This document shows positions 10,751 to 58,487 of a DNA stretch of 64,000 bases, piece after piece. The position numbers were made by a program, and so were the translations under genes. A model generated the notes under the pieces. That model searched no databases. It was not told the origin of the DNA and saw only the letters and a list, made by a program, of their open reading frames with translations. This stretch comes from an uncultured Anaerolineaceae bacterium. Lineage in GTDB: Bacteria; Chloroflexota; Anaerolineae; Aggregatilineales; Aggregatilineaceae. The DNA is taken from assembly GCA_964611395.1 (NCBI GenBank), contig CAZSXY010000002.1:1682-65681 (forward strand), given 5' to 3'. The first letter of the stretch is position 1. Every line of letters starts with the position of its first letter.

Positions 10751-11770
10751 ATGACAAAATCCCCTGCACACCGCGTCACGCTCAGCGATGTAGCCCGTCT
10801 GGTCGGGGTTTCATCCCAAACTGTGTCACGTGTGGTCAACAATCACCCCTATGTCTCCGAAGCGACACGCCAGCGCGTTCAAGAGGCCATCCGCGAACTC
10901 GATTACCGCCCCAACCGGGCCGCTCGCAGCCTGGCGACGCGGCGAACGTGTATGCTGGGTATCATCAGTTTTGGCATACACCACTATGGCCCGGCCCAGA
11001 TGATGAATAACATCGAGCAAACCGCCAAGACCAAGGGCTATGGGGTTAGCTTCTCAACGGTTGACACGCTGACGCCCGACGAGTTGCATCGCGCGATGGC
11101 GGCCCTCGGTGAACGTTCCGTTGATGGCATTGTGTTCATCACGCCGGTGACCGGCATCTGTCACAACGACCTCACCGATCTATGCAGCGGTATCCCTTTT
11201 GTCCAGATTGACACAGAACTGTCCGCTCAGGTTCCGTCCGTTGTCATCGATCAACACTACGGTTCGCACCTCGCCACACAACACCTGATTGATCTCGGCC
11301 ACAAGGCAATCTGCGAGATCAGCGGGCCGCTCAACTGGTACGGCGCGCAGGCACGCCACCAAAGCTGGCTTGAAACACTCCATGCCGCCGGGTTGTCACC
11401 GGGCGTATCCGTCGAAGGTGATTGGACCGCACAGAGTGGCTATGAAGCCGCCCGCAAGCTCTTACAAGAAAGGTACGCGTTCACGGCCCTGGTTGTTGGC
11501 AATGACCAGATGGCCCTGGGAGCGATCCGCGCCTTGCGCGAACAAAACTTACACGTGCCCGATGACATTTCAGTCGTCGGTTTTGACGACGTGCCCGAAG
11601 CAGCCTATTACGAGCCACCGCTTACCACGGTGCGGCAAGACTTCGCCGCCCTGGGCAAACAAAGCGTGGACTATCTCACCACCCTGATCAGCAACCCGGA
11701 CACACCGTTACACCAGCGCGTGCTGTACCCGCAGTTCATCGAACGCCAGAGTACGCGCCAATTGGAGTAG
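10751..11770 (+). CDS. LacI-family transcriptional regulator
   Basis: N-terminal HTH VTLSDVARLVGVSSQTVSRVVNN, followed by a PBP-like effector domain. Start moved to 10751 so the HTH sits at the N-terminus as is usual in this family. Confidence 0.9.
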   Translation: MTKSPAHRVTLSDVARLVGVSSQTVSRVVNNHPYVSEATRQRVQEAIRELDYRPNRAARSLATRRTCMLGIISFGIHHYGPAQMMNNIEQTAKTKGYGVSFSTVDTLTPDELHRAMAALGERSVDGIVFITPVTGICHNDLTDLCSGIPFVQIDTELSAQVPSVVIDQHYGSHLATQHLIDLGHKAICEISGPLNWYGAQARHQSWLETLHAAGLSPGVSVEGDWTAQSGYEAARKLLQERYAFTALVVGNDQMALGAIRALREQNLHVPDDISVVGFDDVPEAAYYEPPLTTVRQDFAALGKQSVDYLTTLISNPDTPLHQRVLYPQFIERQSTRQLE

Positions 11771-11896
11771 CATGAACGTTTTAGTGGCGGTGGACGGCCT
11801 GCCCGTCACCGTACCAGTTTTCAAACCGTCACTCCGGCAAGCCCCGGAGAACGGGTTTTGGGCAGCATCAAATGTTTGGTAAGGAGTTTAGTACCG

Positions 11897-27900: not shown

Positions 27901-29276
27901 TCATGCCCACCACCACACCGACTTTGCCGCCTACTGCGACAGCCACGCTGGTCACGCCCTCCGCCACGGCCACCCTACTGCCTACTGCCACAGCCACGCT
28001 GGTCATGCCCACCGCCACACCAACACCCGATCCAGGGCGCTCGCTCACAGTCATCGAATCCGATAGTGCGCAAGTGACCAGAACCGGCCAATGGACGGCG
28101 CATGAAACGTCCTTGGCCAGCGGCGGGCAATACCTGTTCAGCAGCGGCAGCACCGCCGACACGCTCAGCCTGAGCTTCAGTGGCGGCTATGCCGAAGTGA
28201 TCTTTGTGCGCCATCCCGCGCTTGGATCATTTGCGGTGGAAGTAGACGGCGCGGTCATCCAAACCGTCGACAGCACCGCGAGCGACAGCATATTCGGTGA
28301 GCGGGTGGTGCTGAGCCTCAGCCCCACGCAGCACACGCTGCGCATCGTGCCGGTGACAGGCACGGTGGCCATCGATGCCTTCGTCGTCGAAACGCCGGCG
28401 CAACCACCGCTCTCGCCTGAGCCAACGGCGACGCCGGTCGTGTTACCAACGCAGACCATTGCCACCCAGGAGCCAACGGATGCGCCACCTTCGCCGACTG
28501 CCACAGCAACCAGCACGCCTGTAGTGCGCCCCCCAACATGGCCCCTGCCATACGTCGATCACTTCGACACCGCGACGAACTGGCAGGCAGAAGGCTCGTG
28601 GAAGTACGAACCCGAACGCAACAACCGGGGTGGGGAATGGCTGGCCGACAGCCAGATTCGCCAGCAGACAAGCACTCTGACCCTGCTCATGCCGGTCGAT
28701 CTGGGCACAGCAGTACGCCCGCAACTCTCCTTCTGGCACAAGGCCATGCTTGATCAAAGCGACCGGATCGCAGTGGACGCAAGCCGCGATGGTGGGATCA
28801 CCTGGCAGACACTCACCGAGCAGGCCGGGGCCAACTGGGACTGGGCACAACTCACGCTCGACCTGGCGGCCTATCGTGGCGCACCGGTGATGCTCCGCTT
28901 CCGGCTGGTGACGGGCGCTGCCAGCTTTGCGACCGTCAGCACCGGCTACTGGATTGATGACGTGGTTGTGCAAGACACTGTCACCACCCCGCCTACACCA
29001 ACCCAGCCCGCATCAGCAACCCCGCTGCCGACAGTAACGATGGCTCCAACAGAAACGGCTACGCCAACGATGCCACCAACTCCGACGGCAACACCACTGC
29101 CGACACTCACACCATCGTGGACGGCCACGCCACCACCAACGCTTACGCCGACCGGAACGGCCACGCTGCTGCCAAGCGCAACGCCATCCTGGACGCCCAC
29201 CAGCCCGCCGGAGGTCACACTCACCACACCTACGCAACCTCCCGATCAACCAACACCGGGTGCCGGAGAGCCTTAA
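24924..29276 (+). CDS. Giant secreted multidomain protein: lyase-like N-domain, 2 DNRLRE/CBM96-like domains, CBM-like domain, MAM-like beta-sandwich, Pro/Thr linkers
   Basis: Signal-like N-terminus. The N-domain is paralogous to 58488-59939. SARPDRNYG..YLRLR and SSRPDYNYN..YLRVR motifs mark the DNRLRE domains. Long PT-rich linkers. Start at GTG 24924 or ATG 24933. Confidence 0.8.
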   Translation: MTCMYWNKVSLIRYVVVLSMLITLWVSASALRAEDSGEAIPATNRLAGQTSSSYSSRGYLTTPAELKIIAQKAAQGVEPYKSTVRGVLSDANRTWNYSLDANETCGGSSDPAWIVHNEGIRTLYAKALAFHLTGDARYAEEVRTILEAIMTRVITITTKDAQCGLNFGWGTPELVASADLIEDYWRTMTCTGPLNTTYGDSKIGTGNCKQLFQNWLVKNPYYIVSYTAEKSLNNWGAAATTAVAYIADYLWDRPDMPLVHRYPSQVNGGKSVTFTPAQAYAHANQLAIDRMNGYRVDYHGSSSCDFLSGSQQSSRWTPVKSQITERGIVPDDARREEYCNVPTYNGSYQNYPQVHLGNNIQQCELMLRRGDRSCYDNIDTTKITDFTYIDARGSVRTTTLYPGRGSIERAINAVIRDSKTEWRHDAGLAVAYRYYASYSRFGGVQDWASQITAINDCAQDVCFGVLTHGFAPGEKVGLPPTVPPPSDGSAKALPTPVPTQTTAPTQTQMPTEAPTATPTTGMTSTPTPEMTYTPTALPGDVQIFLPVEDALVKSARPDRNYGTVSYLRLRDNDDDYHGYLKFYVAGLSGPVQRATLRLFAYNGSKDGGSVYSVMDTYRDSAAPWLETELTWNNAPPMDGTPLSTVGPVADGQWVEFDVTAAVTGNGIISLGLLNRSSNSVYYYAKEAEANQPQLIIEVSDGSPEATEPPNPPLPTETQLPTATATQTIVPTDTPTATSTMMPTDAPAATSTSVLTPTSTATTIPSVTPTSLPPTATPASPSLKTDPPVSSTRIVLPPSDDVLVKSSRPDYNYNIRTYLRVRMTSTADYDSYLKFSVPTLAGPVTKATVRLYAYDGSPDGGTLYAASNEYATGGAWTETGLVWNNAPGLGRQVLGSAGPVADGQWVEFDVTTAISGGGTYSFGLTSASSNSVFYYSKEATQNHPELVLEIESGSPPSSTPAPTATAPLPPTMTPVATTTLVMPTLPPTVTATLVMPTTTPTLPPTATATLVTPSATATLLPTATATLVMPTATPTPDPGRSLTVIESDSAQVTRTGQWTAHETSLASGGQYLFSSGSTADTLSLSFSGGYAEVIFVRHPALGSFAVEVDGAVIQTVDSTASDSIFGERVVLSLSPTQHTLRIVPVTGTVAIDAFVVETPAQPPLSPEPTATPVVLPTQTIATQEPTDAPPSPTATATSTPVVRPPTWPLPYVDHFDTATNWQAEGSWKYEPERNNRGGEWLADSQIRQQTSTLTLLMPVDLGTAVRPQLSFWHKAMLDQSDRIAVDASRDGGITWQTLTEQAGANWDWAQLTLDLAAYRGAPVMLRFRLVTGAASFATVSTGYWIDDVVVQDTVTTPPTPTQPASATPLPTVTMAPTETATPTMPPTPTATPLPTLTPSWTATPPPTLTPTGTATLLPSATPSWTPTSPPEVTLTTPTQPPDQPTPGAGEP

Positions 29277-29834: not shown

Positions 29835-32800
29835 CTATGCGTCTTCGATCTGCACTCCGTTGAGCCAGTAGGAACCACCCACACTCGCCGCCGGGTCGCT
29901 GAGCACCACCCGGAAGCGCAACCGGATCACCTGCCCCTGATAGGCGTTCAAGCTGACAGTGCGCTGCGCCCAAACAGTGACCAACCCCACCTGCTGATCA
30001 ATCGTCACCCAGGAAGCACCACCGTCCACACTGACATCGATCGCGATCGTATCACCGGGCAACAAGTCGCCCTTCTGCATGAAGCTGAGTTGCTGCAACA
30101 CGCTGGCATCGAGTGCGAGGAATCCGTTGTATTCTAGCGTACTCACCGCCACCTGACCGTTTGGCGCCAACACCCAGGACGTTGTCGCCGCATCATAAGT
30201 CCAGTCTCCGCTCGCCAGCCAACTCGATTCGTCCCCCGATAGATCGCTGGCAGGCACAGGGGTTGTGGTCGCAAGTGGCATCGATAGCGTTTCAGCGCTT
30301 GAGGATGTTGTCTCCGCAGCGGAATCAAGCTCAATGACAAGCTCCGGCGGGTTCACTGTTGACTCTTTGCTGTAGTAGAACACGCTGTTCGTCGACGCGC
30401 TATTCAGCCCAAAGCTGTAAATGCCATCACCACTGATCGCGCCGGTCACATCAAACTCGACCCAGGTGTCAATGACGGCCTCGCCCACCGCATCCAGCGC
30501 TGATCCGCCGATCACAGGCGCGTTATTCCACGTGATCCCCATTTCAGACCAAGCGCCGCCGGTCGCGTAATCGTTCGAGACCAGGTAAATCGACCCACCA
30601 TCCGGGCTGCCGTCATACGCATACATGCGCAACGTGGCCTTCGTCACCGTTCCACCCAGCCCCGTGATATTGAATTTCAAGAAGGTACGATACTCGCGTG
30701 TGTCTGTCAGCCGCAGCCGCAAATACGTCGAGTCGCCATAGTTCGAGGTCGGGCTGGACGAAGACACCCGCGCGTCATCACTGGGCGCAAAGATCATCTC
30801 CGCCGGTGGCGGCGGCGTGAAGGTCGGCGTTGGTGTTGGTGTGCTGGTAAACGTTGCCGTCAGCGTCGGCGTATCCGTCACTACCGGTGTGTCCGAGGGC
30901 GTTGGCGTCTCGGTCGGAGACGGCGTCTCGGTGGGTGTGTCCGTCACCGTTGGTGTAAACGTCTCGGTCGGCGTGTCGGTTGGCGTGAACGTCTCCGTTG
31001 GTGTAAACGTCTCGGTCGGCGTGAAGGTCGCCGTCGGAGTCTGCGTCTCGGTCGGTGTGTCTGTCACCGTTGGCGTAAAGGTATCCGTCGGAAGCGGTGT
31101 ATTGGTAGGTGGCGGACCAGCATCCACCTCAAGAACCAGCTCCGGCGGGTTCACAGCCGATTCTTTGCTGTAGTAGAGCACGCTGTTCGTCGACGTGCTA
31201 TTCAACCCAAAGCTGTAGATGCCGTCACCGCTGATCGCGCCGGTCACATCGAACTCTACCCAGACATCGGCACCGACCGCGCCTACGGAATCCAGCGCTG
31301 TCCCGCCGATCGCAGGCGCGTTGTTCCACGTGATCCCCATTTCAGACCATGCGCCACCGGTCGCGTAATCGTTCGAGACCAGGTAAATCGTGCCGCCGTC
31401 TTTGCTGCCGTCATATGCGTACATGCGTAACGTGGCCTTCGTCACCGTTCCGCCTACGCCGCTCACCGCAAATTTCAGGAACGTGCGGTATTCGCGCGTG
31501 GAAGTCAGCCGCAGCCGCAGATATGTCGAGTCGCCGTAATTCGAATCCGGGCTGGACGAATACACTCGCGCGTCATCGCTGGGCGCAAAGATCATCTCCG
31601 CCGGTGGCAGCGGTGTAAATGTTGCCGTTGGCGTGAAGGTGAAGGTCGGCGTGGGCGTTTCGGTGGGCGTATCCGTCACTATTGGCGTGTCCGTCGGTGT
31701 GAAGGTCGCCGTAAACGTCGGCGTGTCAGTGGGCGTCGGCGTGTCGGTCGGCGTAAGTGTCTCCGTCGGAGTCTGCGTCTCGGTGGGCGTATCCGTCACC
31801 GTCGGCGTGTCCGTAGACGTAGGCGTTTCGGTCGGCGTATCCGTCACCGTCGGAGTCAGCGTTTCGGTGGGCGTATCTGTCACCGTCGGCGTGTCCGTTG
31901 GTGTATCTGTCGGCGTAAACGTCGGCGTAAAAGTATCGGTCGGAAGCGGTGTATTGGTCGGCGTCGGGCCAACTTCCACCTCAAGAACCAGTTCCGGCGG
32001 GTTCACAGCAGACTCTTTGCTGTAGTAGAATACGCTGTTCGTCGATGTGCTATTCAGCCCAAAGCTGTAGGTGCCATCACCGCTGATCGCTGCGGACACA
32101 TCGAACTCAACCCAGGTGTCAATCACGGCTTCGCCCGCCGCATCCAGCGCCGATCCGCCGATCGCGGGCGCGTTGTTCCAGGTGATCCCCAGTTCAGACC
32201 ATGCGCCACCGGTCGCGTAATCATTGGAGACCAGGTAAATTGTGCCGCCGTCCGGGCTGCCATCATACGCATACATGCGCAACGTGGCCTTCGTCACCGG
32301 CCCGCCCAGCCCGCTCACAACGAACTTGAGGAAACTCCGATATGCCCCGGTATCGGTCAAGCGCAGCCTCAGGTACGTCGCATCACCATAGTTTGAATCG
32401 GGATTTGCTATGTAAACACGCGCGTCATCGCTGGGTGATATGGTCACAATGGCCGGCGGTAATGGCGTATTAGTAAACGTTGCCGTCGGCGTTGGCGTAT
32501 CCGACGGCGTTGGGGTATCGGATGGTGTTGGCGTGTCCGAGGGCGTGGGCGTGTCCGATGGTGTCGGCGTGATGGATGGGGTCAACGTGTCCGTTGGCGT
32601 TGGCGTGATCGATGGCGTGAGCGTTTCAGTGGGCGTGTCCGTCACCGTCGGCGTATAGGTGAACGTAGGCGTCGGTGTCGGCGGCCCTCCCGACAACGTC
32701 AGGTAATTATGGTAATAAAACTCCGTCGAACTATTCGACGCGACTACGACGATGCCTGTCGTGCCGTCAACATTCTGTTTGGTGGACGCCGGATTATTGG

Positions 32801-33968
32801 TCTTGACCGTCGAGGAGCTGCTGATGAAAACATCGCCTTTGCCCGGAGGGAACGCAATAGTATTGATGTCTGATGACTTGTGATAAATCGCGCCGCCACT
32901 TTGCCCCGATGTCGCAAACATGTGGATCATGCCGTTTGCCTCATCGAGCAACACAATGGGGCGCGTATGGCTATCATCCCCCGTGCCAAATGTATAGGTT
33001 GACCACCCGCCCAGCGCCCCGCGCACGTGCAAAACCACAAGCGGGTCGCTGCCCGTATGTCCTGTCTTGCCGGCGACAAACAATCGCCCGGAGCTATCAG
33101 CTTTGAGATTAAGGTGATCGTCGGTCTCCCCGCTCCCCTGAACGATCACTTCCTGCTGCCAGGTCGTGTCTGGGTCTCCATCCTGGTGGATCGCCAGGTA
33201 CGACGCCGAGTCATTCTGGTTACTCCACACAACGCCGATCTTGTTTCCCTGGAACGCAATAACGGCGGCTATGTCGTCGCTCGACACGTTATCAGCCCCG
33301 GTCGGAACCGGCAAAACATACGACGTGCCCCACGTCGCATCGTCAGATAGGCTGTGGTTCACCATCACCTTGCGGCTTTCAACATAGGCGATCCACAACG
33401 TACCGGATGAATCTTTGGCAATGGTCAGCGTTTCCGACTTGCCCTGAGTTATCGTAACCGGGAAACCGGGGTCGAGGCTATATTGCTGAGTTGAACTGTT
33501 ATAACTGTACCGGTAAAGGCGGCCCCAGTTCGAGGCGGAAGAAGTTGGCGCTGCACTTGTGGTGAAGACATGCGAAACGAGATACAGCTTCTGGCTCGCA
33601 GCGTCCCACAGCACATCCCCCTTGGTTCCACCCCGGTCGTCCAGCGCCGTGCCGGTGTCAATCCAGGTTTGCGTAAACGGGTCCAGACGATAAATGCGGT
33701 ACTCGTCAGCGGCCTCGTTGAACAGATCGCCCCACCAGAACCCATCATTCCACCACAGCTTGCTTTCCGGTTTTTCACCCGTTGGCGTTGAGTTTACTGA
33801 ACTACCGTAGCTGAAATCAACATAACCGACATCGCCTTCTTGGGCCAATGTCGGTGTTTGTGACCATAGCGATGTGCTACCGGCTACCGCAACGGTAGCC
33901 AATATGACAATTAGCCACAGACGCACACTTCTATGGCCAAGAATTCGACGTCGATTCGGAAAAACCAC
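29835..33968 (-). CDS. Giant secreted multidomain protein: beta-propeller/sialidase-like N-domain, 3 DNRLRE/CBM96-like domains, MAM-like C-domain, Pro/Thr/Asp linkers
   Basis: Signal-like N-terminus. Three repeats of [23 protein letters not shown] ... ELVLEV. The C-terminal domain is homologous to that of 24924-29276. Confidence 0.8.
30331..32462 (-). repeat. Three tandem ~0.8-kb intragenic repeat units (DNRLRE domain plus PT linker)
   Basis: Domain-coding blocks at ~30331-30815, ~31121-31612 and ~31968-32462 align at DNA level with few mismatches. For example, tccggcgggttcac...ctttgctgtagtag recurs at 30342, 31141 and 31992. Confidence 0.85.
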
Positions 33969-39957: not shown

Positions 39958-40671
39958 CTATTTGCGCATGCGGCGTTCGTGGAACGCCAGGATTGACGCT
40001 TTCACGTCATCCAGCACTTTGTCTTCCGGTTGAGTCGCATCGATAACGACGAAGTTCGGCACGAGCCGGCCCATTTCCTGGTACGCTTTGCGCCGCTCTT
40101 CCAGCAGCTCCGCTGTGCCCTCCCCTTTGCGGGCGAGCAAGACCCCCGCCGGAGCATCGAGATAGATCATCAACCCCGGTTTGGGGTAGATGTGTTTGAG
40201 CATCAGGCCGTGAATCCGCCGCGCAAGCGTTTTTTTGTATGGCGTCTCGGCCACATCATAGCTGTAATAGTCCGGGAAGAAATGCCGGTCAAACAACACC
40301 ACATAGCCGCGCCATTCATAGACCCACGTGATCACCTGGCGGAACCATTCTTCGGCCATCCGGTTCATCAAGGACAGCAACGACTTGATGCCACGCACGA
40401 ACCGACGGGCACGCCCTGCCGGATCGGCGGCAATCGTGCTGGGATCGCGCGGGCCGTGCGTGTCGGCAGGAACTCCGCGCAGCCGCTTAATCGCTCGCAA
40501 CAGGCGCGTTGTGGGTAGCATCACGTTGCTGGAGTCGGTACTCACTCCCATGTAAACATAACGTGTGGGTAACGAGAACGACTCCTGCAAACGGTGGCAG
40601 ATGGTGGTCTTTCCACAACCATCCGGGCCCACTAACGCAACTGAGAACATCTTCATTGTCTCATGCCTCAT
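39958..40671 (-). CDS. Small P-loop kinase-like protein (paralog of the C-half of 48754-50025)
   Basis: Walker A VALVGPDGCGKTT, Walker-B-like VVLFDRHF, and the LDAPAGVLLARKGE block shared with the paralog. Confidence 0.6.
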   Translation of the reverse strand: MRHETMKMFSVALVGPDGCGKTTICHRLQESFSLPTRYVYMGVSTDSSNVMLPTTRLLRAIKRLRGVPADTHGPRDPSTIAADPAGRARRFVRGIKSLLSLMNRMAEEWFRQVITWVYEWRGYVVLFDRHFFPDYYSYDVAETPYKKTLARRIHGLMLKHIYPKPGLMIYLDAPAGVLLARKGEGTAELLEERRKAYQEMGRLVPNFVVIDATQPEDKVLDDVKASILAFHERRMRK

Positions 40672-41874: not shown

Positions 41875-42906
41875 TTAGAAACTCAAATCCCCAACATGAC
41901 TCGCGGCATAAAGCCACAGGGCATGGTACCGATTCGACCGCAGCCAATCGGCGGTTTCGCCGCTAAGCCGGTCGTCAAGACCTCCGGCCTCACGAACACG
42001 CGCCACCAGTTGGCCGGTGTAGCGCGCCCAAGTCAGCACAAACAACGGGGCAAGCGCCTCAGTGGGCAACTCCAGCGCCCGCGCGTAGTGGCTTATATAG
42101 GGCCGCGCCCAGGCCTCGGTCCCAAAGAACGCCTCATGAAACGCCTGCAGATACTCCGGCAATGACCGGGCGCGGTTGCGCGCGAAGGCAATGTACGTGA
42201 GGAAGAAAAACAAATCGCAAGCAACCAGCCCATCGAGCCGGGCCAACTCCCAATCCACTACACCCAGCCCCCCGTGAGGCATCACAATCAAATTGGGATG
42301 GCTCAGGTCGCCGTGCTCCAGCACTGGGGGCAAATTCGCCTCCTGGAGCCGGGCCGCAAGCTGGCGGGTTACCGCCAGGGCGCGCTCTTCGTCCGGCGTG
42401 AGCGCCGACGCGTTTTCGATGGCCGCCAGCGGTTCCAACACGAGACGGTCGAACCAGTCCGCGCCACCACGATCGGGCTGCGGCTGTTGCACCTCAACCA
42501 GCCACTCAACGCCCAACCGGCAACAACGGGCCATGTCACGGCGCGCCACAGCCTTGCTCATCGGAGTGCCGACAATAGCCGTCTCAAGCAGGATGGGGTA
42601 GCCGCAATAGGTATCGTAAGCGACTACTTCCGGCACTGACGCGAAACCGCCAGGACGCAGCGCCTGCACAGCCCGCAATATGCGCACTTCGCGCTCCAGA
42701 AATTCCCCGGCATCAGGCAGGCGCGGCACTTTGGCCACCAGCACCGGGCGCACCCGGCCCACCGGCAAAATCAGGAACACCGCATGGCGCGACGCCTGAA
42801 ACCGTGGCGTGAGCACAACGCTGGTCAACCGGCGCGGCACACCCAGACGTTCCAGGTCAAGGCTTACGCGGTGTTCTTCCAGGTATGAAAGCGCCATGTT
42901 CATCAT
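41875..42906 (-). CDS. Aminoglycoside-phosphotransferase/protein-kinase-like fold protein
   Basis: Brenner motif EHGDLSHPNLIV and VVDWELA. Start set at the ATG overlapping the upstream stop (TGATG at 42904-42908). The longer track ORF overlaps the upstream gene. Confidence 0.7.
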   Translation of the reverse strand: MMNMALSYLEEHRVSLDLERLGVPRRLTSVVLTPRFQASRHAVFLILPVGRVRPVLVAKVPRLPDAGEFLEREVRILRAVQALRPGGFASVPEVVAYDTYCGYPILLETAIVGTPMSKAVARRDMARCCRLGVEWLVEVQQPQPDRGGADWFDRLVLEPLAAIENASALTPDEERALAVTRQLAARLQEANLPPVLEHGDLSHPNLIVMPHGGLGVVDWELARLDGLVACDLFFFLTYIAFARNRARSLPEYLQAFHEAFFGTEAWARPYISHYARALELPTEALAPLFVLTWARYTGQLVARVREAGGLDDRLSGETADWLRSNRYHALWLYAASHVGDLSF

Positions 42907-43529
42907 CACACCCGCTGGCCGGTCAGGCTGAAATGCCGGATGCCCCACCCCAACAACCGGCTGTAAAACAGGCCAAGCGCGGTCAGATGGGCGAGCATTC
43001 CTTTCACGCCGGATGCGCCCTTCAGCCACGCGCTCGACACCGCGCCTGCGTCGTCTAAAGGAACCATGCGTGTGCAGGACGCGAAATTCGGCCAATGCCA
43101 GTGTGCCTGCACTCCGATCAAACCAGCACGCAGCGCCGCCCGGCGATAGGCACCGGGATGCACCCACCGGCCTGACACTTCCGCATACACGGCCCCACCG
43201 GGTCGCAGCAACACCACAACAGACGCCAACAAAGCAGGCGAAACCCCTTTACACACCACGCGATCATAGGGAGTATCGGTGGCTCCCAACGACGACGCAT
43301 CCAACACTATCAATTCGTCGCTAAAGGTGCGCAACGCTTCAAGCAACGCGCCCTGTTCCGGGCCGATATAGGCCACCCGGCCCAGCGTGGGGTCCGGCAG
43401 CAAGAAACGCCAATCCAGGCGACGCACCGCGATCAATTGCGCGTGACCGGCGTCTTCCCCTGCTGCAGTGTTGGGCTGCTGATCTAGCGCAACCAGGCTA
43501 TCAAGCGTCATCACTACCCTCACCACCAT
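42906..43529 (-). CDS. Rossmann/methyltransferase-like domain protein (homolog of the N-half of 56669-58483)
   Basis: WRFLLPD...VAYIG...IVLD...LLRPGGAVY pattern resembles a class I methyltransferase fold. Collinear with the N-terminal 200 aa of the 56669-58483 product. Confidence 0.4.
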   Translation of the reverse strand: MVVRVVMTLDSLVALDQQPNTAAGEDAGHAQLIAVRRLDWRFLLPDPTLGRVAYIGPEQGALLEALRTFSDELIVLDASSLGATDTPYDRVVCKGVSPALLASVVVLLRPGGAVYAEVSGRWVHPGAYRRAALRAGLIGVQAHWHWPNFASCTRMVPLDDAGAVSSAWLKGASGVKGMLAHLTALGLFYSRLLGWGIRHFSLTGQRV

Positions 43530-43532
43530 CGT

Positions 43533-44708
43533 TTACTGGCAAATACACGGCTTCATCACGTCAAACATATCGGAAAGCACAGCGGGGTAGGGATGGCCGA
43601 TGATGTAAGCATCTTTACCCGCCAGCGCTGATGTCAGTAGCTCAAACTGGCGGGTCTCCGCCGATTCGATCAGTTTGTTACGGGCTTCTGGAAACGCAAA
43701 ACGATACATCATGTAGGTGCTCATGAATGGAAACAGTTCGTATTGCAACGAAAACACCATCCGGCGAGCAATTTCAGCGGGGTCAATCGGTCTGGCATAC
43801 ACCTCGTCGGATTCATGGCTGAGCACCCAAAAGACCTTGTCCAAAGACCCCGACAACGTAAACGCCGACTCTGGGAACAGCTTGCGCGGATGCATATCTA
43901 CGAACATCTGGCGTTCCAGAAAGCGAACCACGCGCCCGGCTTTTCGGGAGACACTTTGAGGACCGAGGCGGCTACCACGCCGGATCACGTCCAGCGCTTT
44001 TAAGCGCGCGCGGTCGCCCATCTGGATCAAGCCATTGACACGCGGAAGCTGGTCAAGATACCAATGCCAAATCCGGATCGGTTCCGGAATGCCGAACATC
44101 TTTCCATCTGGCGTGAGGTAGACCCATTCATCGCCGACATATGCCGCGCCCTTTTCCATAAAGGCCAGCAGCGCCTCGGTTTTCCCGCCCTTTGACCAGC
44201 CGGTCGTCAACACGCCAACGCCGTCGAACGTAAATGCCGATGCATGGAGCGGGACGATGCCTTTTGCCAGCATTGTCAGGTTGATGATCGGGATCAGCAG
44301 CGGAACGGCAGACAGGCCCGACTCGCACTCAACCACGCACGGGCCGCCTATCTGGTCAAGCGCCAGCCGCACCCGCGCCTGGGCCTTGTGTTTGCTGCGC
44401 AATACGAAAAACTCATCGTCGGTGAATCCGGCTTCATGAGCGCCAAGGTAGCGGAGCGGTGACGTCAGGGACATGCGCTCGACAAAACGGATGGTGATAT
44501 CGGGTTCGCCGGGCCAGGGCCGTTGAATAGGCCCAAGTTGGCGCTCAACCGCTGCCACATCGCCGGGCAATGGATCAAGCAAACGGATTCCAACCAGGTC
44601 GTGCAGGTTGAAATCTACGACTGCATGCTGTTCTTCACTCAATATCCCATCCCCAATCCTGGTGAGATTCCCGGTAGCCACGGTGTAAGGCAAAAACGAG
44701 TCTTTCAA
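43533..44708 (-). CDS. HPr kinase C-terminal-domain-like P-loop protein
   Basis: PLHASAFTFDGVGVLTTGWSKGGKTEALLAFMEKGAAYVGDEWVYL is collinear with the HprK core (hHG..v...G.GVLitG.SG.GKSE.aLeLi.rGh.LvaDD). Confidence 0.6.
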   Translation of the reverse strand: MKDSFLPYTVATGNLTRIGDGILSEEQHAVVDFNLHDLVGIRLLDPLPGDVAAVERQLGPIQRPWPGEPDITIRFVERMSLTSPLRYLGAHEAGFTDDEFFVLRSKHKAQARVRLALDQIGGPCVVECESGLSAVPLLIPIINLTMLAKGIVPLHASAFTFDGVGVLTTGWSKGGKTEALLAFMEKGAAYVGDEWVYLTPDGKMFGIPEPIRIWHWYLDQLPRVNGLIQMGDRARLKALDVIRRGSRLGPQSVSRKAGRVVRFLERQMFVDMHPRKLFPESAFTLSGSLDKVFWVLSHESDEVYARPIDPAEIARRMVFSLQYELFPFMSTYMMYRFAFPEARNKLIESAETRQFELLTSALAGKDAYIIGHPYPAVLSDMFDVMKPCICQ

Positions 44709-48753: not shown

Positions 48754-50025
48754 ATGCACACGATGATAGAACACACCTTCGACGAACTAGAGGCGGCTGG
48801 CATCGTTTATTGCCTTTTGCGAGACGCAACCCGGCTTGACCATCTTGCGCAAGGCGGCGAAATCGACATGCTGGTTCAGGCAAACCAGCTCAAAGCCCTG
48901 AAACAACTCCTATGGCAACTCGGTTATGTGCCGCTGCCGTCGATGGGTTATGAACCGCACCATTTCTTTGTCCGGTACGAACGGGAATCCGACGGCTGGT
49001 ACAAGCTCGACGTGGTCACCAAGATCGTATACGGCAAGAGCGTGAAGTTCCTCCACACGGACCTGGCTGCAGCCTGTTTGCGCAACCGCCAGCGTGTGGG
49101 GCCAACCTATGCGCCTTCCCCCGAAGACGAGTTTGTGACCCTGTTGCTCCATTGCCTGCTGGACAAAGGGCGTTTCGCCCCCCACCGGCGCACAAGGTTG
49201 GAGGCGCTGCGCCATGCGGTCACGCAGCCCGAGTACGTCTCAACATTGCTTGCCACGTATTGGCTGCCCGATGCGACATTCGATCAGATCACCGGGCACA
49301 TCGACGCGGGGGACTGGGACGGCTTGCTGGCTGCCCGCGAACGCGTCACCGCGCACCTCAAGCGCCGGAAGCCTGTCGCCCAGGTCGTCGCCATTCTGCG
49401 ACGGAAGTCCGGGCGTATCCTGCACCGGATCGGGGGGCTGGCACACCCGGTCATGCCGTCGGTGGCCCTGCTGGGGCCGGACGGCGCAGGGAAATCGACC
49501 CTGGCCGAGAGCCTGAGCGAGCGCTTCTGCATGCCGGTTCGGTCGGTGTACATGGGCCTGTACCCCAATTCCGCGCGGAAAAAGCCCGCCAGACGAGTGC
49601 CAGGCCTGGGTTTCATGAAATTATTGACCGTCCAGTGGCGACGATACCTCCAGGCACGCTCGGCGCAGGCACGCGGCCACCTGGTAGTCTTCGACCGCTA
49701 CGCTTATGACGCGCTATTGCCGCAACCGCAGCGCCGCAATCCGCTCAAGCGCCTGCGCCGGTGGCTGCTGGCCCATGCTTGCCCGCCGCCTCACCTGGTG
49801 CTGGTGCTGGACGCGCCCGCCGAAGTGCTGTATGCGCGCAAAGGCGAACATACGGTGGGTAAGTTGGAATCGCAACGGCAGGCCTACCGGTCGTTACAAA
49901 CCCGGCTGTCCAACGTCACGATCCTCGACGCGACCCGCGAAGCCGAGCACGTCCGCCGCCAGGCCAATACGGCTATCTGGGAGACCGTTTTCAGACGAAG
50001 AAACAGCAAGGGCAAGGTCACATGA
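48754..50025 (+). CDS. Nucleotidyltransferase-like (NTP_transf_5-like) domain fused to P-loop kinase-like domain
   Basis: N-half has GGEIDMLV...LGYVPL...YKLDVVTKI. C-half has Walker A VALLGPDGAGKST, LVVFDRY and LDAPAEVLYARKGE, paralogous to 39958-40671. Confidence 0.55.
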   Translation: MHTMIEHTFDELEAAGIVYCLLRDATRLDHLAQGGEIDMLVQANQLKALKQLLWQLGYVPLPSMGYEPHHFFVRYERESDGWYKLDVVTKIVYGKSVKFLHTDLAAACLRNRQRVGPTYAPSPEDEFVTLLLHCLLDKGRFAPHRRTRLEALRHAVTQPEYVSTLLATYWLPDATFDQITGHIDAGDWDGLLAARERVTAHLKRRKPVAQVVAILRRKSGRILHRIGGLAHPVMPSVALLGPDGAGKSTLAESLSERFCMPVRSVYMGLYPNSARKKPARRVPGLGFMKLLTVQWRRYLQARSAQARGHLVVFDRYAYDALLPQPQRRNPLKRLRRWLLAHACPPPHLVLVLDAPAEVLYARKGEHTVGKLESQRQAYRSLQTRLSNVTILDATREAEHVRRQANTAIWETVFRRRNSKGKVT

Positions 50026-51299
50026 CGGCGACATTCACCCCTACCGCAGAGCAAGAAACTACAGCCCAGAAACCAATGCCTAAAGTGGCATATATAATGT
50101 CGCGCTTCCCTAAAATTACCGAGACGTTTATCCTGTACGAAATCCTCGCCGTGCAGAAACAGGGCGTGCCCGTCGAACTCTACCCGCTCCAGCGTGAACG
50201 CACATCCGTCATGCATCCCGAAGCCAGGCCGCTGGTAGAAGCTGCTCATTTCCTGCCGTTGATCGCCTGGCCGATCATCCGGTCGCATCTCCACTACTTG
50301 CGCACCAGGCCCCGCGCCTACGTTAAGGCATTGTGGGATCACCTGCGAGCGACCTGGGGCAGCAAGCGCTATTTCTTTGGCGCACTGGCATTCTTCCCCA
50401 AGACGGTACGCTTTGCGCACATGATGGAAGCGGCGGGTATTGAGCATATTCACGCGCACTTTGCAAGCCACCCGGCGGCAGCAGCATTTGTGATTCATCG
50501 CCTGACCGGGATTCCCTACAGCTTCACGGCACACGGTTCTGATTTGCATCGCGATCGCCACATGCTATGCCAAAAAACGGCTGAAGCCGCTTTTGTGGTG
50601 ACGATCTCAAACTTCAATCGCGACATCTTTGTTCAGGCGTGCGGCGACTGGGTGCGTGACAAAGTCCACGTGCTCCATAGCGGCGTCGATACCGAGGCCT
50701 TTCAACCGTTAGACGCCGACCGCCCCCCAGGCCAACCGTTCACCATCCTTTGCATCGGCACATTGCACGAGGTCAAAGGGCATACCCACCTCATCGAAGC
50801 CTGTCGCCTGCTCCGCGAACGTAACATCGATTTTTCGTGTCACTTTGTGGGCGATGGACCCGATCACGCGGCACTTACCATCCAGGTAGCCAGTGCTGGT
50901 CTGTCCGATCACATCCATTTTGAAGGGCGGTTGACACGCCAGGATGTGATTGCCATGCTGCGGCGGGCTGATGTCGTCGTTGCGCCCAGCGTGCCGTCGC
51001 GTGACAACCGGCGCGAAGGCATCCCGGTGGTGCTGATGGAAGCCATGAGCAGTGGCGTGCCGGTCATCGCCAGCGACCTATCGGGCATCCCGGAACTGGT
51101 CGAGCACGAGGTAAGCGGCCTGCTGGTCTCGCCCGGTGACCCGGCAGCGATTGCCAGCGCGATCGAACGCCTGGCCCGCGATCCGGCGCTTCGGCGGCGA
51201 CTCGGCCAGGGCGGGCGCGACAAAGTGCAGCGTGAGTTCGACCTTGACACCAATGCTTCACTGCTGGTGAAGCACATACAAAGCAGGGAGCAGGCATGA
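50022..51299 (+). CDS. Glycosyltransferase family 4 (WcaL-like)
   Basis: KVAYIMSRFPKITETFILYEI N-terminus and EGIPVVLMEAMSSGVPVIAS E-x7-E region. ATGA overlap with the upstream gene. Confidence 0.85.
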   Translation: MTATFTPTAEQETTAQKPMPKVAYIMSRFPKITETFILYEILAVQKQGVPVELYPLQRERTSVMHPEARPLVEAAHFLPLIAWPIIRSHLHYLRTRPRAYVKALWDHLRATWGSKRYFFGALAFFPKTVRFAHMMEAAGIEHIHAHFASHPAAAAFVIHRLTGIPYSFTAHGSDLHRDRHMLCQKTAEAAFVVTISNFNRDIFVQACGDWVRDKVHVLHSGVDTEAFQPLDADRPPGQPFTILCIGTLHEVKGHTHLIEACRLLRERNIDFSCHFVGDGPDHAALTIQVASAGLSDHIHFEGRLTRQDVIAMLRRADVVVAPSVPSRDNRREGIPVVLMEAMSSGVPVIASDLSGIPELVEHEVSGLLVSPGDPAAIASAIERLARDPALRRRLGQGGRDKVQREFDLDTNASLLVKHIQSREQA

Positions 51300-54064: not shown

Positions 54065-56656
54065 GTGAAACACGACCAACTGATCAGTAACCTGATCGGA
54101 AAACTCAACAGCCGGGATAACGACGAAACGCACGCGGCAGTCGACGCGCTGCGCGAACTGGGGTGTTTGAGTGATGGCACGCTGCGCGGGGGCAACTTCC
54201 TGGGCGCGAACCTGCAAGGGTTGCAACTGGGCGGCGCAGACCTGCATAGCGCACGCCTCGAATGGTCACAGCTAGACAATGCCGACCTGACGGAAGCCAA
54301 CCTGCAGGAAGCCAACCTGTCAGTGACATCGCTCAAACACGCCAGGCTGGTGGGCGTCGATTTGCGCCACGCCCAACTGTTAAAGGCGCGCCTGCAAGGA
54401 GCAGACCTGCGCTCAGCGCTGCTCAACTCCGCAGAACTGGGAGAAGCTCGCTTGCACGGCGCGAACCTCAGGAGCGCGAACCTCAGCAAAGCGCGCTTGG
54501 GGCAGGCAGAACTGGTGGGGGCTGACCTGTCAAACGCCACCCTCAAACAAACGTGGCTGCGCGGAGCCGACCTGGAAGACACAAGCATGGAAAAGGCCGA
54601 CATGCGCCAGGCTTACCTGGGAGAAGCCAATCTGCGGCAGGCCATCTTGCGATCCGCCAACCTGGCCGGGGCTATCCTGACCGGCGCGACCCTGCTGAAA
54701 GCCGACCTCCGCCATGCCAACCTGACCGGCGCGCGCCTGACATCCGCTGACCTGCGCGGCGCAGACCTGAGCGATGCGTGCTTGCGGGAGTGCAATCTGA
54801 GCGACGCGAACCTGCAGAATGCCGATCTCACCGGGGTTGACCTGCGCGGCGCGAATCTGACGGGCACAGACCTGTTCGCAGCCTCGCTGGATCAGGCATA
54901 CTTCGACGAATCCACCATCCTGCCAGATGGACGCGCATGGTCACCCGCCGTCGGTGAACCCTTCGCCATGCTCACGCCATTGCCAGACATACCCACAGAA
55001 GAAACGCCAAACGTGTCCATTACCCCTTTACTGAAGCCATCGCACGTTGAACCAGCCGGCGGCGGCAACGGCCATCCGGTTGCCCCGGTTGCCGAAATAC
55101 CGCGTGCGATAGTAAGGAAAAAGAAACGACCCAAAGACATAAGTGCCGCCGGGTCAACGCGCCGCCAGATTCGCGGGTCAAGCCTGTTGCTGGTCGGACG
55201 TATGATCTCGATGGTCGTCAACTTCGTCGTTCAGGTCTTGACGGTTCGCTACCTGACCAAGGCCAACTACGGCGCGTTTGCCTATGCGCTCTCCATCGTG
55301 TCACTGGGCGAAACTATTGTCACCCTGGGGCTGGACAGGGCCGTCACACGCTTCGTGCCGATTTACCAGGAACGCGACGAGTACCCCAAGATGTTCGGCA
55401 CACTCGTGATGGTCTTCGGCACGATTCTTTCGCTGGGAATCGCGCTCGTTCTGGCCGTCGTGCTGTTGCAAGATTTCATTGCCACACACCTGATCAGCGA
55501 CCAAAAAGCGGTCGAGTTGCTGGTGATCCTGGTCGCGTTATCGCCGGTGCAGGCCATCGACAATGTGTTGAACGGGTCATTCGCGGTGTTCTCGAAACCC
55601 AGCGCGATTTTCTTCCGCAAGTACGTCTTAGGCCCGGCCCTAAAAATTACCGTTGTCGCGTTGCTGATTCTGGGCAACAGTGGGGTGGAATTCCTCGCGG
55701 CGGGCTACCTGGGCGCAGGATTGGTGGGGATTTCAATCTTCTCGGTCATTCTATGGCGCATGTTACGCGCCCAAGACTTCTGGGCGCAGTTCAGCCTGAA
55801 GACGATTCAGTTTCCGGCCCGCGAAGTGCTGGCGTTCACCGTGCCGCTGCTGGCATCTGACATGGTATTCGTGGTGATGAACACGGTCGATGCCATTCTG
55901 TTGGAACGCTACAAAGGAACTGTCGATGTGGCCGCGTTCCGCGCCGTCCAGCCTACAGCCCGCTTGAATCAAATGGTTCTGTCGAGCTTTGCCCTGCTCT
56001 TCACCCCCGCAGCCGCACGAATGTTTGCCCGCAACGACAAAGAAGGCATCAACAGCCTGTATTGGCAAAATGCCGTGTGGGTCGCGATTGTGTCATTCCC
56101 GGTGTTTGCGCTCACTTTTTCGCTGGCCGAACCCCTGACCGTGCTCTTGTACGGTTCGCGCTATGAGCAATCGGCGCTGATCATGGCCATGTTGTCGCTG
56201 GGGTACTACTTCAATGCGGCAACCGGCCAAAACGGGCTGACGCTCAAGGTGCTGGGCAAGCTGCGCTACATCGTCGGCGTCGATATCCTGGCGGCGGTGA
56301 TCAACCTGCTGGTCAACCTCACGCTGATCCCACGCTATGGCGCGATGGGAGCCGCCATCGGCACGATGACCACGTTGATCCTGTTCAACATACTCAAGCA
56401 AATCGGGTTAATGTTGGGCACGGGCATTCGCGTGTTTGATCTCAATTACCTCAGGGTGTATCTAAGTATCGTGGTAGGCGCGGTGGGGCTGCTGGCGATC
56501 CAGGCGTTCTTCGTGCTCCCACTCGCCGTCGGTTTTGCCATTACGGCGCTGGTATCGCTGCTCGTATTGCGCCTTAACCGGCGGATGCTCAACCTGGAAG
56601 TGATGTTCCCCGAACTACTGCGCATTCCCATCGTGCGCTGGTTCTTTGGCGAGTAG
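54065..56656 (+). CDS. Pentapeptide-repeat domain fused to a MOP/Wzx-type polysaccharide flippase
   Basis: Residues ~35-285 are continuous A(D/N)LxX pentapeptide repeats (ANLQGLQLGGADLHSARLEWSQLDNADLTEANL...). After a basic linker there is a ~500-aa, ~14-TM Polysacc_synt-like region. Confidence 0.8.
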   Translation: MKHDQLISNLIGKLNSRDNDETHAAVDALRELGCLSDGTLRGGNFLGANLQGLQLGGADLHSARLEWSQLDNADLTEANLQEANLSVTSLKHARLVGVDLRHAQLLKARLQGADLRSALLNSAELGEARLHGANLRSANLSKARLGQAELVGADLSNATLKQTWLRGADLEDTSMEKADMRQAYLGEANLRQAILRSANLAGAILTGATLLKADLRHANLTGARLTSADLRGADLSDACLRECNLSDANLQNADLTGVDLRGANLTGTDLFAASLDQAYFDESTILPDGRAWSPAVGEPFAMLTPLPDIPTEETPNVSITPLLKPSHVEPAGGGNGHPVAPVAEIPRAIVRKKKRPKDISAAGSTRRQIRGSSLLLVGRMISMVVNFVVQVLTVRYLTKANYGAFAYALSIVSLGETIVTLGLDRAVTRFVPIYQERDEYPKMFGTLVMVFGTILSLGIALVLAVVLLQDFIATHLISDQKAVELLVILVALSPVQAIDNVLNGSFAVFSKPSAIFFRKYVLGPALKITVVALLILGNSGVEFLAAGYLGAGLVGISIFSVILWRMLRAQDFWAQFSLKTIQFPAREVLAFTVPLLASDMVFVVMNTVDAILLERYKGTVDVAAFRAVQPTARLNQMVLSSFALLFTPAAARMFARNDKEGINSLYWQNAVWVAIVSFPVFALTFSLAEPLTVLLYGSRYEQSALIMAMLSLGYYFNAATGQNGLTLKVLGKLRYIVGVDILAAVINLLVNLTLIPRYGAMGAAIGTMTTLILFNILKQIGLMLGTGIRVFDLNYLRVYLSIVVGAVGLLAIQAFFVLPLAVGFAITALVSLLVLRLNRRMLNLEVMFPELLRIPIVRWFFGE

Positions 56657-56668
56657 GAGTCACGCCTG

Positions 56669-58483
56669 TTGCTTGAGCTTACACTAGCCACCGATTTTAT
56701 TCCCGGCTCAAATCTGCGCGGCAATGTGGCCGGAGCCAACTGGACCTATCTACTACCCGACCTGAACCTGGAAGCAATGCTCTGTGTAGGCGCGCCTTCG
56801 ACGGCAGCCTTGCACACGCTGGCTTCGCTGGCCCAGTCCGTTATCGTGTGCACACCCTCGCATGCCAGCCTCGATACTAGAGCGCTCGCTGGCTGGCCGA
56901 ACGTCACGCTACTGGCCATTGCCAGCAACGGAACGCTGCCCCTTGATGACCTGAGCGTCGATCTGGTATTTGTGACAGACCGGCATCTTGTGCGCGATCA
57001 CCGGCAACTGGAGAACGAGATACGCCGCGTGCTGCGCCCGCGCGGGCTGGCGTACTACGAAACCCGTAGCCCGCTGCGCCGGATGCCGTCAGCCGACAAC
57101 CTTCTGGGTTCCGGAAGCGCGCAACACTTCTGGCTGACGCCGCTCGGTGGCGAGATGCACACCGCGGTTCCGGCCAGCGATGCCGTCACACGCCGCTTTT
57201 TCCTGCGGCAGGCGTTGTTCAGCCCGTCGATCACCGTGCACACGGCGAAACGCGCTATACGCCGCATGCGCAGACGACGCCAGACCGTCGCGTCGCCGGA
57301 CACCCCACCCTCGCCACCAGAAGACCGCGCCCCGCAACGCCTGGGTGACAGGATGCGGTTGCTTGGCGATCGCGTGTTCGAAGCGCTGGCCAGCGCCGAG
57401 GGTACACTGCACCGGCATACCACGCTGATCGGGCGGTATGGCGTCCTCGAAGGTCGCGCGGGCGCTCCCCTTACCGGCGACCCACCCGCCTACCTGTGCG
57501 ACATGGCGGAGCAGGCGGGTCTTGACCTGCACCAATACGGGTGGGGATTGTGGGCCGGAGGCCAATACAGCTCGCGGAAGCTGCTATTCTTCCTCGTCGA
57601 TCGGGAATCGGCGTCGCTGCGCTACCTGGTCAAAATGGTTCGCGACCCGTCGTTCAATACCCGGTTGGAGAACGAATGCGCGGCCCTCAAAGACCTGGAA
57701 GCACGCAACTTCGCGCACGATCACGCGCTGCCAAGGGTTGTCTTTCATGGCCATCACCACCACCTGGCAATCGTCGGCGAGACGGCGGTGCAGGGAGTTC
57801 CCTTCAAGAGCAAAACGCGCCTCACGGCGTCATGTCCCTACGCCCATGCCGTGATCGAGTGGCTGACAGATTTGGGCGCAACCACCGCCTCGCCCGACGA
57901 CGTCGCGCCGCAGGACGTCGCCCGCGCTCTGAACACCCTTTTCGAGCGCTTCCAGGCCATTTACCGGTTACCACCTGCCGAGCGCGACTTCCTCAGCGAA
58001 CAGATCGCCGCTTTGGGCAATAGCCGGACGCCGTTTCCGCTGGTATTTCAGCACGGCGATCCCGGCCCCTGGAATATGCTGGTCACGCCTGACGACACGG
58101 TTGCCTTGTTGGATTGGGAATCTGCCGAGGCGAAGGGCATCCCGTTGTGGGACCTGTTTTACTTCTTGCGATCATATGCCGTGAACGTTGCGCGTTCCAA
58201 CGGGACGGCTGATCGGGTGGAGGGGTTTGCCAAACACTTTCTAACCCGCTCGTCGCTTAACCACATGATAGTGGATGCCACGCGCCAGTACTGCACGCGG
58301 ATCGGGCTGGCTGGCGAATTCATTGGCCCGTTGTTTTACACCTGCTGGATGCATCGTGCGCTCAAGCAATCAACTCTGCTACAATCTCATACATTGGCAG
58401 ACGGGTACTACTTCCGCCTGCTTCGTTACACCATCCAGCAACACGACGCACCAGCACTCAGACAATTATTCACGCAGACCTGA
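56669..58483 (+). CDS. Fusion of methyltransferase-like domain and APH/protein-kinase-like domain
   Basis: The N-half is collinear with 42906-43529. The C-half has QHGDPGPWNMLV and LLDWESA, collinear with 41875-42906. TTG start. Confidence 0.6.
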   Translation: MLELTLATDFIPGSNLRGNVAGANWTYLLPDLNLEAMLCVGAPSTAALHTLASLAQSVIVCTPSHASLDTRALAGWPNVTLLAIASNGTLPLDDLSVDLVFVTDRHLVRDHRQLENEIRRVLRPRGLAYYETRSPLRRMPSADNLLGSGSAQHFWLTPLGGEMHTAVPASDAVTRRFFLRQALFSPSITVHTAKRAIRRMRRRRQTVASPDTPPSPPEDRAPQRLGDRMRLLGDRVFEALASAEGTLHRHTTLIGRYGVLEGRAGAPLTGDPPAYLCDMAEQAGLDLHQYGWGLWAGGQYSSRKLLFFLVDRESASLRYLVKMVRDPSFNTRLENECAALKDLEARNFAHDHALPRVVFHGHHHHLAIVGETAVQGVPFKSKTRLTASCPYAHAVIEWLTDLGATTASPDDVAPQDVARALNTLFERFQAIYRLPPAERDFLSEQIAALGNSRTPFPLVFQHGDPGPWNMLVTPDDTVALLDWESAEAKGIPLWDLFYFLRSYAVNVARSNGTADRVEGFAKHFLTRSSLNHMIVDATRQYCTRIGLAGEFIGPLFYTCWMHRALKQSTLLQSHTLADGYYFRLLRYTIQQHDAPALRQLFTQT

Positions 58484-58487
58484 TGCC

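Follow-up and report, generated by a model that had tools for sequence, protein, structure and literature searches.

When two domains occur in one locus both as a single protein and as a pair of neighboring proteins, one may ask whether they act as one unit, and what such a unit does. The window analyzed here raises this question. It is a stretch of 64,000 nucleotides (nt) from an uncultured Anaerolineaceae bacterium (phylum Chloroflexota, family Aggregatilineaceae in GTDB; GenBank assembly GCA_964611395.1, contig CAZSXY010000002.1, positions 1,682 to 65,681), and it holds a divergent two-arm polysaccharide locus of the Wzx/Wzy type. On the minus strand, a gene for a stand-alone protein of 207 amino acids (aa) with a degenerate class I methyltransferase fold (split N, 42906..43529; supported by its open reading frame (ORF), homologs, an AlphaFold2 (AF2) model and Foldseek matches) is followed by a gene for a 343-aa APH-type kinase (split C, 41875..42906; supported by a Pfam APH match and by BLASTP similarity to the fused protein). 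On the plus strand, a single gene (56669-58483) that starts with TTG encodes a protein of 604 aa, whose N-terminus MLxxTLAT is kept in its homologs. The two are ancient paralogs. On balance, we think it likely that both are obligate enzymes made of a pseudo-methyltransferase and a kinase, and that they phosphorylate exopolysaccharide sugars or substituent precursors.

The preliminary description of this DNA had proposed that the split pair follows the 604-aa product collinearly, one gene for its N half and the next for its C half. This is what we found. The kinase halves are related at the level of single sequences (BLASTP of split C against the fused protein: E 9e-16, with 25% identity over 264 aa). 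In the pairwise comparison of the N halves, 13 residues are identical in a patch of 41 (E 0.002), a match that is doubtful taken alone. When the two N families were compared as profiles with hhalign (61 homologs of split N on one side and, on the other, the N-domains of 54 fused homologs chosen on residues 1-200), the similarity was significant, with a probability of 99.1% and an E-value of 1.5e-18 over 130 columns. The search is also reciprocal: with the hidden Markov model of either N family, proteins of the other family are retrieved from independent loci. When split pairs were concatenated and placed in a multiple alignment with fused proteins, the result was collinear along its entire length, and the motif pairs quoted earlier (for instance WRFLLPD with WTYLLPD) all fall in aligned columns. 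In this alignment the boundary between the genes falls within a loop that follows the last N-domain strand, where RHFSLTGQR aligns with GRYGVLEGR, and precedes the first helix of the kinase, where (A)LSYLEEH aligns with PPAYLCDM. Each split protein is thus homologous to a different part of the fused protein and the order is kept, which makes the locus the internal Rosetta-stone case that had been suggested.

The split genes meet at a stop/start junction (42900..42911, minus strand) that reads GTG TGA TGA TGA AC, after a CGG codon, on the coding strand. Split N stops at 42908-42906, the first of three successive in-frame TGA codons (42900-42908), and the ATG of split C (42906-42904) shares its A with this first TGA, giving an overlap of 1 nt. 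The minus-strand sequence bears out the TGATG overlap reported earlier, and all three ORFs are as described. A second ATG at 42903 (ATGAAC) overlaps the third TGA and corresponds to the start of most relatives. As the third TGA lies in this ATGAAC, the 4-nt overlap of the relatives, the window junction has two extra, earlier stops through the repetition of TGA, and its triple TGA is a local variant of the ATGA overlap common among relatives. Among 59 related split loci, the stop and start codons overlap in 39, by 4 nt (ATGA type) in 36 and by 1 nt in three. With overlaps of this size, one small insertion or deletion suffices to join the two genes or to part them. The length of 343 aa for split C assumes a start at the ATG overlapping the stop; the longest ORF, which begins at an upstream GTG, is a shadow extension. 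For split N, an alternative start at 43511 yields the 201-aa database gene call.

Stand-alone homologs are numerous for both split proteins: about 100 of ~200 aa for split N, and several hundred of ~345 aa for split C (592 homologs in total, the best 120 of which are all 341-384 aa long). In all eight loci that we inspected, the N gene is followed directly by the kinase gene. Because of these constant lengths and this adjacency, the split in the window is not an assembly artefact, and the conservation data rule out a recent frameshift in the window's genome as its origin.

Both kinase parts are, on the evidence of their conserved motifs, APH-type kinases (eukaryotic-like, acting on small molecules) with an intact catalytic apparatus. 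Pfam APH (PF01636, cut-off 23.2 bits) matches split C with 68.7 bits (E 8.6e-19) and the fused protein with 46.5 bits (E 4.9e-12), as well as 49 of 51 members of the fused family. In split C, the catalytic residues are HGDLSHPN (aa 198-205; the codon of Asp200 at 42307-42309), DWE (218-220), Lys60 of strand beta3 and Glu73 of helix C. Their counterparts in the fused kinase domain (aa ~266-604, 57464..58483, plus strand; delimited by Pfam APH, invariant columns and Foldseek) are HGDPGPWN (462-469; the codon of Asp464 at 58058-58060), DWE (482-484), K322 of strand beta3 and E336 of helix C. K322, E336, H462-G-D464, N469 and D482-W-E484 are invariant across the 51 fused-family sequences. Foldseek places the C part of the fused protein among the APH(2''), APH(3') and choline/ethanolamine kinases. 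Neither kinase is a member of the aminoglycoside-resistance equivalog (NCBIfam APH(3')): split C scores 28.3 bits against a cut-off of 205, and the fused protein gives no match.

The N modules had been called methyltransferase-like, which is correct for the fold. In the fused protein the N-domain covers aa 1-185 (56669..57223, plus strand; delimited by Pfam Methyltransf_11 and the family profile), with the motifs GANWxFLLP (aa 22-30), CVGAPST (39-45, a remnant of motif I), RPxGxxYxE (123-131) and WLTPLGGEMHTAVP (155-168). It is joined to the kinase by a linker (aa ~186-265, 57224..57463, plus strand; from the AF2 model and the alignment) consisting of an Arg-rich segment modelled with low confidence, then a long helix and the closing N-domain strand. 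The predicted local distance difference test (pLDDT) score falls to 47-69 over residues 201-250 of this linker, in a model that otherwise scores well (pLDDT 88.3, predicted TM-score (pTM) 0.87). The fused family thereby has an extra insert of ~55 aa, Arg-rich and helical, before the closing strand of the N-domain, which is absent from the split pair. For the model of split N (pLDDT 87.4), Foldseek returned 377 PDB matches at E <= 0.001, and the best 50 of the 377 are all methyltransferases or methyltransferase-fold proteins. On these models, the N module has a Rossmann-like, seven-stranded class I methyltransferase fold.

Pfam Methyltransf_11 matches residues 38-129 of the fused protein just above its cut-off (26.1 versus 21.2 bits, E 1.3e-5), and split N (207 aa) has no match in Pfam or NCBIfam. 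At E <= 0.01, only 4 of 61 split-N and 15 of 51 fused members match any methyltransferase family of Pfam. Against the PDB, a search with the single fused sequence gave noise only and the split-N profile gave nothing significant; the fused-family profile matched the methyltransferase YcgJ (1xxl) with its N-domain at 2.6e-4, and no other entry.

In class I methyltransferases, the GxGxG loop of motif I binds S-adenosylmethionine (SAM), and an acidic residue at the end of strand 2 binds the ribose hydroxyls. We found neither feature conserved in either family. Where YcgJ reads VLDIGAGAGH, the fused family reads VVCxGAPSS, and the window proteins have GAPST (fused) and GPEQG (split). The first glycine is kept in 58 of 61 split and 51 of 51 fused members, and the other glycines are not conserved; at the position of the second, the fused family has Pro or Leu and the split family mostly Ala or Val. 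The acidic residue at the end of beta2 is present in 25 of 61 split and about 30 of 51 fused members (<60% of sequences), and the fused protein of the window, which reads CTPS there, lacks it. Because the SAM-binding glycine loop is lost in both families, the N modules are probably not methyltransferases but non-catalytic or re-purposed domains. They have invariant motifs of their own, (RR)xDW/NWxFLLP, PGGxxYxE and WxxP...P(L)xD; in split N, these comprise RRxDWRFLLP (aa 36-45), PGGxxYxE (110-117) and WHWPNF (144-149). As these motifs are kept, the modules appear to be under selection for some other role.

In order to relate the split and fused states, we turned to trees. In the kinase-domain tree, the split clade and the fused clade each have 100% support and are separated by a long branch, which points to ancient paralogs and not to recent duplicates. 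The idea that the locus carries two diverged copies of one unit is therefore upheld by the trees, with one correction: given the separate clades, the 604-aa gene is not the split pair's direct ortholog in fused form. As both paralogs are kept side by side in every related locus seen, they do not seem to be redundant. Further fused proteins, X1 and X2, came from distant genomes in a sample across the phylum and served as outgroups; the split-N profile fits their N-domains better than the fused-N profile does. The tree built with care from concatenated N and C parts has the topology ((split, fused-X1) 97/95, fused-X2, fused-F). Because the split clade is surrounded by fused lineages, parsimony suggests fission from a fused ancestor.

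One of these distant genomes has a locus (L005, G082:C151) with two fused paralogs, at 4691-6241 (+) and 11126-12805 (-), which are separated by 5 kb and have GT4, GT2 and deacetylase genes around them; one belongs to clade X1 and the other to X2. The presence of both suggests that having two copies per locus is older than the split. The X2 copy reads HWGFDERN in place of the catalytic loop HGDxxxxN and, judging from this motif, may be a pseudokinase.

When GTDB species genomes were scanned for the split-N motif, 80 loci came up, which span Chloroflexota, Acidobacteriota, KSB1, Actinomycetota, Planctomycetota, Bacteroidota, Calditrichota and a Nitrosomonas metagenome-assembled genome (MAG). 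The split-type subfamily, defined by the motif RRxDWRFLLP and including split and fused members, thus occurs in at least eight phyla. Of the 80 loci, 61 are split, 13 have both domains in a single ORF, four have no kinase nearby and two lie at a contig edge. The tree of these loci needs at least five changes of state, and the well-supported branches alone force four. At three or more points of this tree, fused forms are nested among the split ones (in a Calditrichota/KSB1 clade, in clades of Gaiellales/Thermoleophilia and as a single sequence from Acidobacteriota), and the re-fused proteins have unrelated Gly/Pro/Ser linkers of 8-42 aa. Fused and split forms thus sort into separate fully supported clades in the kinase tree, with repeated switching inside the split-type subfamily. 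The at least five switches strengthen the proposal, made from the window alone, that the two domains would act as one functional unit.

The four loci with no kinase nearby (L040, L042, L051 and L064, from Thermoguttaceae and Acidobacteriota MAGs) encode a split-type N protein scoring >200 bits with no APH-type kinase within 3 kb downstream. They indicate that the N module can occur without an adjoining kinase gene.

We also considered as independent fissions the "kinase-only" proteins of 350-450 aa in the fused clade. One of them, P0283, comes from a 2510-bp contig (L013, Logan SRR25528443) on which the N-domain lies in frame 2 and the kinase in frame 3, the frame changing in the GC-rich linker. 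It is a frame-shifted fused gene, and such proteins were not counted as stable splits. The full-length fused profile retrieves at least 1157 representatives of 50%-identity clusters at E <= 1e-30; as this profile retained the kinase columns (539 positions) and the top 150 hits are nearly all full-length fused proteins, the number says little on split forms.

The surroundings of the two copies are conserved as well. The minus arm encodes, in this order, an HprK-like protein, the N protein, the kinase, a GT4 glycosyltransferase, a thymidylate-kinase-like P-loop protein, an ATP-grasp enzyme, a polysaccharide deacetylase, two DUF4350/GldG-like proteins and a SnoaL protein. The plus arm encodes a priming transferase (Bac_transf), a Wzz-like protein, an NTP_transf_5 + P-loop protein, GT4 and GT2 glycosyltransferases, a 507-aa ORF, a pentapeptide-repeat Wzx, the fused protein and a lyase-like protein. 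Wzx, Wzz and Bac_transf genes and a Wzy-like ORF are thus present at the locus, and no ATP-binding cassette (ABC) exporter was found there. The HprK-like P-loop protein (391 aa, 43533..44708, minus strand; weak Hpr_kinase_C and HprK_rel_B matches) is the first of its operon and its gene ends 3 nt before that of split N. In the Chloroflexota relatives L001, L002, L008 and L009, it also lies directly upstream of split N, with 4-nt overlaps. On the other arm, the fused gene starts 12 nt downstream of the pentapeptide-repeat Wzx flippase gene (54065..56656, plus strand; identified from Pfam, gene tables and synteny). Wzx is followed by a fused gene of 550-655 aa in all seven loci, among the eight inspected, that have this flank on the contig.

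The whole layout repeats gene for gene, with 42-77% identity, in one MAG of the Anaerolineae and in other Aggregatilineaceae genomes, and more distant metagenomic contigs carry the same locus rearranged onto one strand. Within the Aggregatilineaceae, 5 of 25 genomes have the locus, all five with both copies 14-17 kb apart, in four cases on one contig; the window's genome has exactly these two copies. In a sample across the phylum, the fused family occurs in only 5 of 201 genomes, so the locus is patchily distributed.

Several further features of these loci deserve mention. In the Anaerolineae MAG (L002, JAOSJP010000012.1, 10561-11635), split C is broken into two overlapping frames of 258 and 211 aa within an otherwise intact syntenic locus, through either a frameshift or an assembly error. 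A further pair of paralogs, one free and one fused, is divided between the arms: the thymidylate-kinase-like P-loop protein of 237 aa (39958-40671, minus) is 32% identical (E 2e-27) to aa 234-408, the C half, of the NTP_transf_5 + P-loop protein of 423 aa (48754-50025, plus), and both are kept in syntenic loci. The gene after the fused kinase (58275-59939, plus) encodes a protein 68% identical over 426 aa to the head of a 1450-aa protein (24924-29276, plus), which shares repeated modules with another giant protein (29835-33968). Upstream of the main locus lie a second Wzx-like gene (21318-22913, minus; 27% identical to aa 606-811 of the pentapeptide-repeat Wzx) and a second GT4 gene (20090-21295, minus; 32% identical to the GT4 at 50022-51299). 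Related loci have extra genes between or beside the kinase units (L001 428-8822, L010 2358-3785, L011 9650-12124). These encode sulfatase/phosphodiesterase-superfamily proteins, APS kinase and GT4 fused to a sulfotransferase, so some versions of the polymer may be sulfated.

What, then, might the unit do? The repeated switching between states, the coupled translation that the overlaps imply, the conservation of the modules and the confident two-domain model together argue for a single enzyme with a non-catalytic N module and an active kinase. The two parts would form one obligate enzyme, within one chain in the fused protein and as a heterodimer in the split pair, where translational coupling would hold the subunits at 1:1. 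Each enzyme would move the gamma-phosphate of ATP to a hydroxyl of an exopolysaccharide repeat-unit sugar, or of a small substituent precursor, on the cytoplasmic side before flipping, and the pseudo-methyltransferase module would serve as an acceptor-binding or scaffolding domain. Given the small-molecule kinase fold and the constant neighbors (glycosyltransferases and Wzx), the likeliest acceptor is a sugar hydroxyl of the repeat unit on its lipid carrier; a small substituent precursor is less likely. The paralogs would phosphorylate different positions or act at different steps; since they are always present together, two sites or two steps are the most likely explanation.

Some observations weigh against this reading. 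The superfamily tree is unrooted, and a fission at the start is an argument from parsimony. Four of the 80 GTDB loci have an N-type protein with no kinase within 3 kb, so the partnership of N module and kinase is not absolute. A ligand pocket might still be formed by the PGGxxYxE strand and the conserved Trp that precedes strand 1, and the N module may retain some cofactor binding, to go by these residues. The packing of the domains in the fused protein is a prediction from the pTM given above. Searches of PDB sequences found no relative of the kinases, and there is no characterized homolog.

A bolder version of the same reading, which we put forward tentatively and think rather unlikely, is that the unit is an undescribed glycan-tailoring module that occurs in Wzx/Wzy exopolysaccharide loci of many phyla. 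The dead methyltransferase domain would be the acceptor-recognition subunit of the kinase. The paralog constantly found after wzx would phosphorylate the repeat unit once it is complete on its lipid carrier, and this phosphate would be required for flipping or mark the unit for it, so that export is coupled to modification. The split paralog would act earlier, with the HprK-like, P-loop and ATP-grasp enzymes of its operon.

Next comes the possibility that the N module is active after all, in a true bifunctional enzyme of the WbdD or Klebsiella O7 ORF6 type: the kinase would phosphorylate the terminal sugar, and an unusual SAM-dependent N module would make a methyl-phosphate cap or tag. The domain order is that of these two proteins (PMC3482155, PMC11231755), WbdD aligns across both domains in Foldseek, the Methyltransf_11 match of the fused protein is just over the cut-off, and the strong conservation of the N module means that it has some role. 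Against this, the GxGxG loop and the beta2 acidic residue are unconserved in both families, there is no sequence relationship to WbdD, the AF2 secondary structure has no extended C-terminal coiled-coil ruler, and the locus is of the Wzx/Wzy/Wzz type and not ABC-transporter-dependent. We consider this improbable.

Equally improbable, in our estimate, is that the kinases act on a small soluble precursor (ethanolamine, choline or a free sugar) and, with the nucleotidyltransferase-like and P-loop proteins, feed a decoration of the LicA/LicC/LicD kind. Choline and ethanolamine kinases are among the Foldseek matches, some split-C homologs have precomputed Choline_kinase matches, and the locus encodes the NTP_transf_5 + P-loop protein and the ATP-grasp enzyme. 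However, no LicD- or LicC-type gene was identified, the similarity to choline kinases is no better than that to APH enzymes, and the fixed place after Wzx, beside glycosyltransferases, suits a lipid-linked acceptor at least as well. That the units are regulatory kinases acting on a protein of the export machinery (for instance the co-polymerase) to control polymer output is still harder to defend: the fused gene is always next to Wzx, but the fold matches small-molecule kinases (APH, choline kinase) and not protein kinases. Finally, the split pair is almost certainly not an artefact or a decaying gene (a frameshift, an assembly error or neighbors that resemble the fused protein by chance): although the pairwise similarity of the N halves is weak and frameshifted copies occur in metagenome assemblies (L013 and the split C of L002), the profile-profile match, the hundreds of stand-alone homologs of constant length, the 61 GTDB loci with the same split, the clean stop/start overlaps and the intact catalytic motifs all speak for a genuine pair.

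The idea of an obligate enzyme of pseudo-methyltransferase and kinase introduces no new principle, as gene fusion and fission and methyltransferase-kinase glycan modifiers are both known already. The locus nevertheless offers a clean and well-sampled case of two domains that have repeatedly changed between a single gene and two overlapping ones. These changes are strong comparative evidence that an uncharacterized ~200-aa family without a Pfam model supplies the partner subunit of an APH-type kinase. Thousands of proteins now named "SAM-dependent methyltransferase" or "aminoglycoside phosphotransferase" in databases are affected by this correction, and the results suggest that exopolysaccharides are tailored with phosphate in Chloroflexota, Acidobacteriota, KSB1, Actinomycetota and other phyla.

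How do these proteins compare with known systems? As to single domains, the kinases share their fold, HxDxxxxN and D-x-E with the APH and choline/ethanolamine kinases (APH(2'')-IVa, APH(3')-IIa, human choline kinase alpha), and differ from them in having a pseudo-methyltransferase partner and a polysaccharide-locus setting; for these two reasons the database name "aminoglycoside phosphotransferase" is misleading. The N module resembles the N-domain of anamorsin/CIAPIN1 (PDB 4M7R, 2LD4), a small methyltransferase-like domain that is among the Foldseek matches of best target coverage for the split N model (TM normalized to the target 0.46-0.51). The anamorsin N-domain is a methyltransferase fold that is not known to bind SAM. 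Anamorsin is, however, a eukaryotic protein of Fe-S assembly, with no functional link and no sequence similarity (E > 1) to the proteins studied here.

For the combination of both domains, the closest systems are two glycan modifiers of surface polysaccharides. In WbdD of E. coli O9a and K. pneumoniae O3, a methyltransferase followed by a kinase phosphorylates and then methylates glycan termini (PMC3482155). The N-terminal module of ORF6 of Klebsiella O7 has the same order and activities, and its kinase is like AmiN of the APH family (PMC11231755). WbdD (PDB 4AZS, 4AZT, 4AX8) resembles the fused protein in that an N-terminal domain of the class I methyltransferase fold directly precedes a eukaryotic-like kinase, encoded in a surface-polysaccharide locus, and among the Foldseek matches listed it is the only target that aligns over both fused domains (~610 columns). 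The global superposition is poor (TM-score 0.21-0.28, root mean square deviation about 20 A), and WbdD gave no match at E <= 1 in PDB sequence or profile searches. It also has an active SAM site, whereas the SAM loop is lost here; it has a C-terminal coiled-coil ruler and a membrane anchor, whereas the fused protein is predicted to end with the helical lobe of the kinase and no coiled coil; and it is the chain terminator of an ABC-transporter pathway, whereas the window locus is of the Wzx/Wzy type. The fused protein thus has the domain order of WbdD and is not of the WbdD type in sequence homology, coiled-coil ruler, transporter context or SAM site. ORF6 can be compared by layout, not by sequence: a methyltransferase domain precedes an APH-family (AmiN-like) kinase that acts on a glycan, but the chain of ORF6 also includes a coiled coil and two GT2 polymerase modules, and its active methyltransferase makes a methyl-phosphate. 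Because methyltransferase-kinase pairs differ in sequence and structure between serotypes (PMC11231755), this architecture has several unrelated versions, and the window proteins are best described as a new version of the theme in which a methyltransferase fold and a kinase together modify a glycan.

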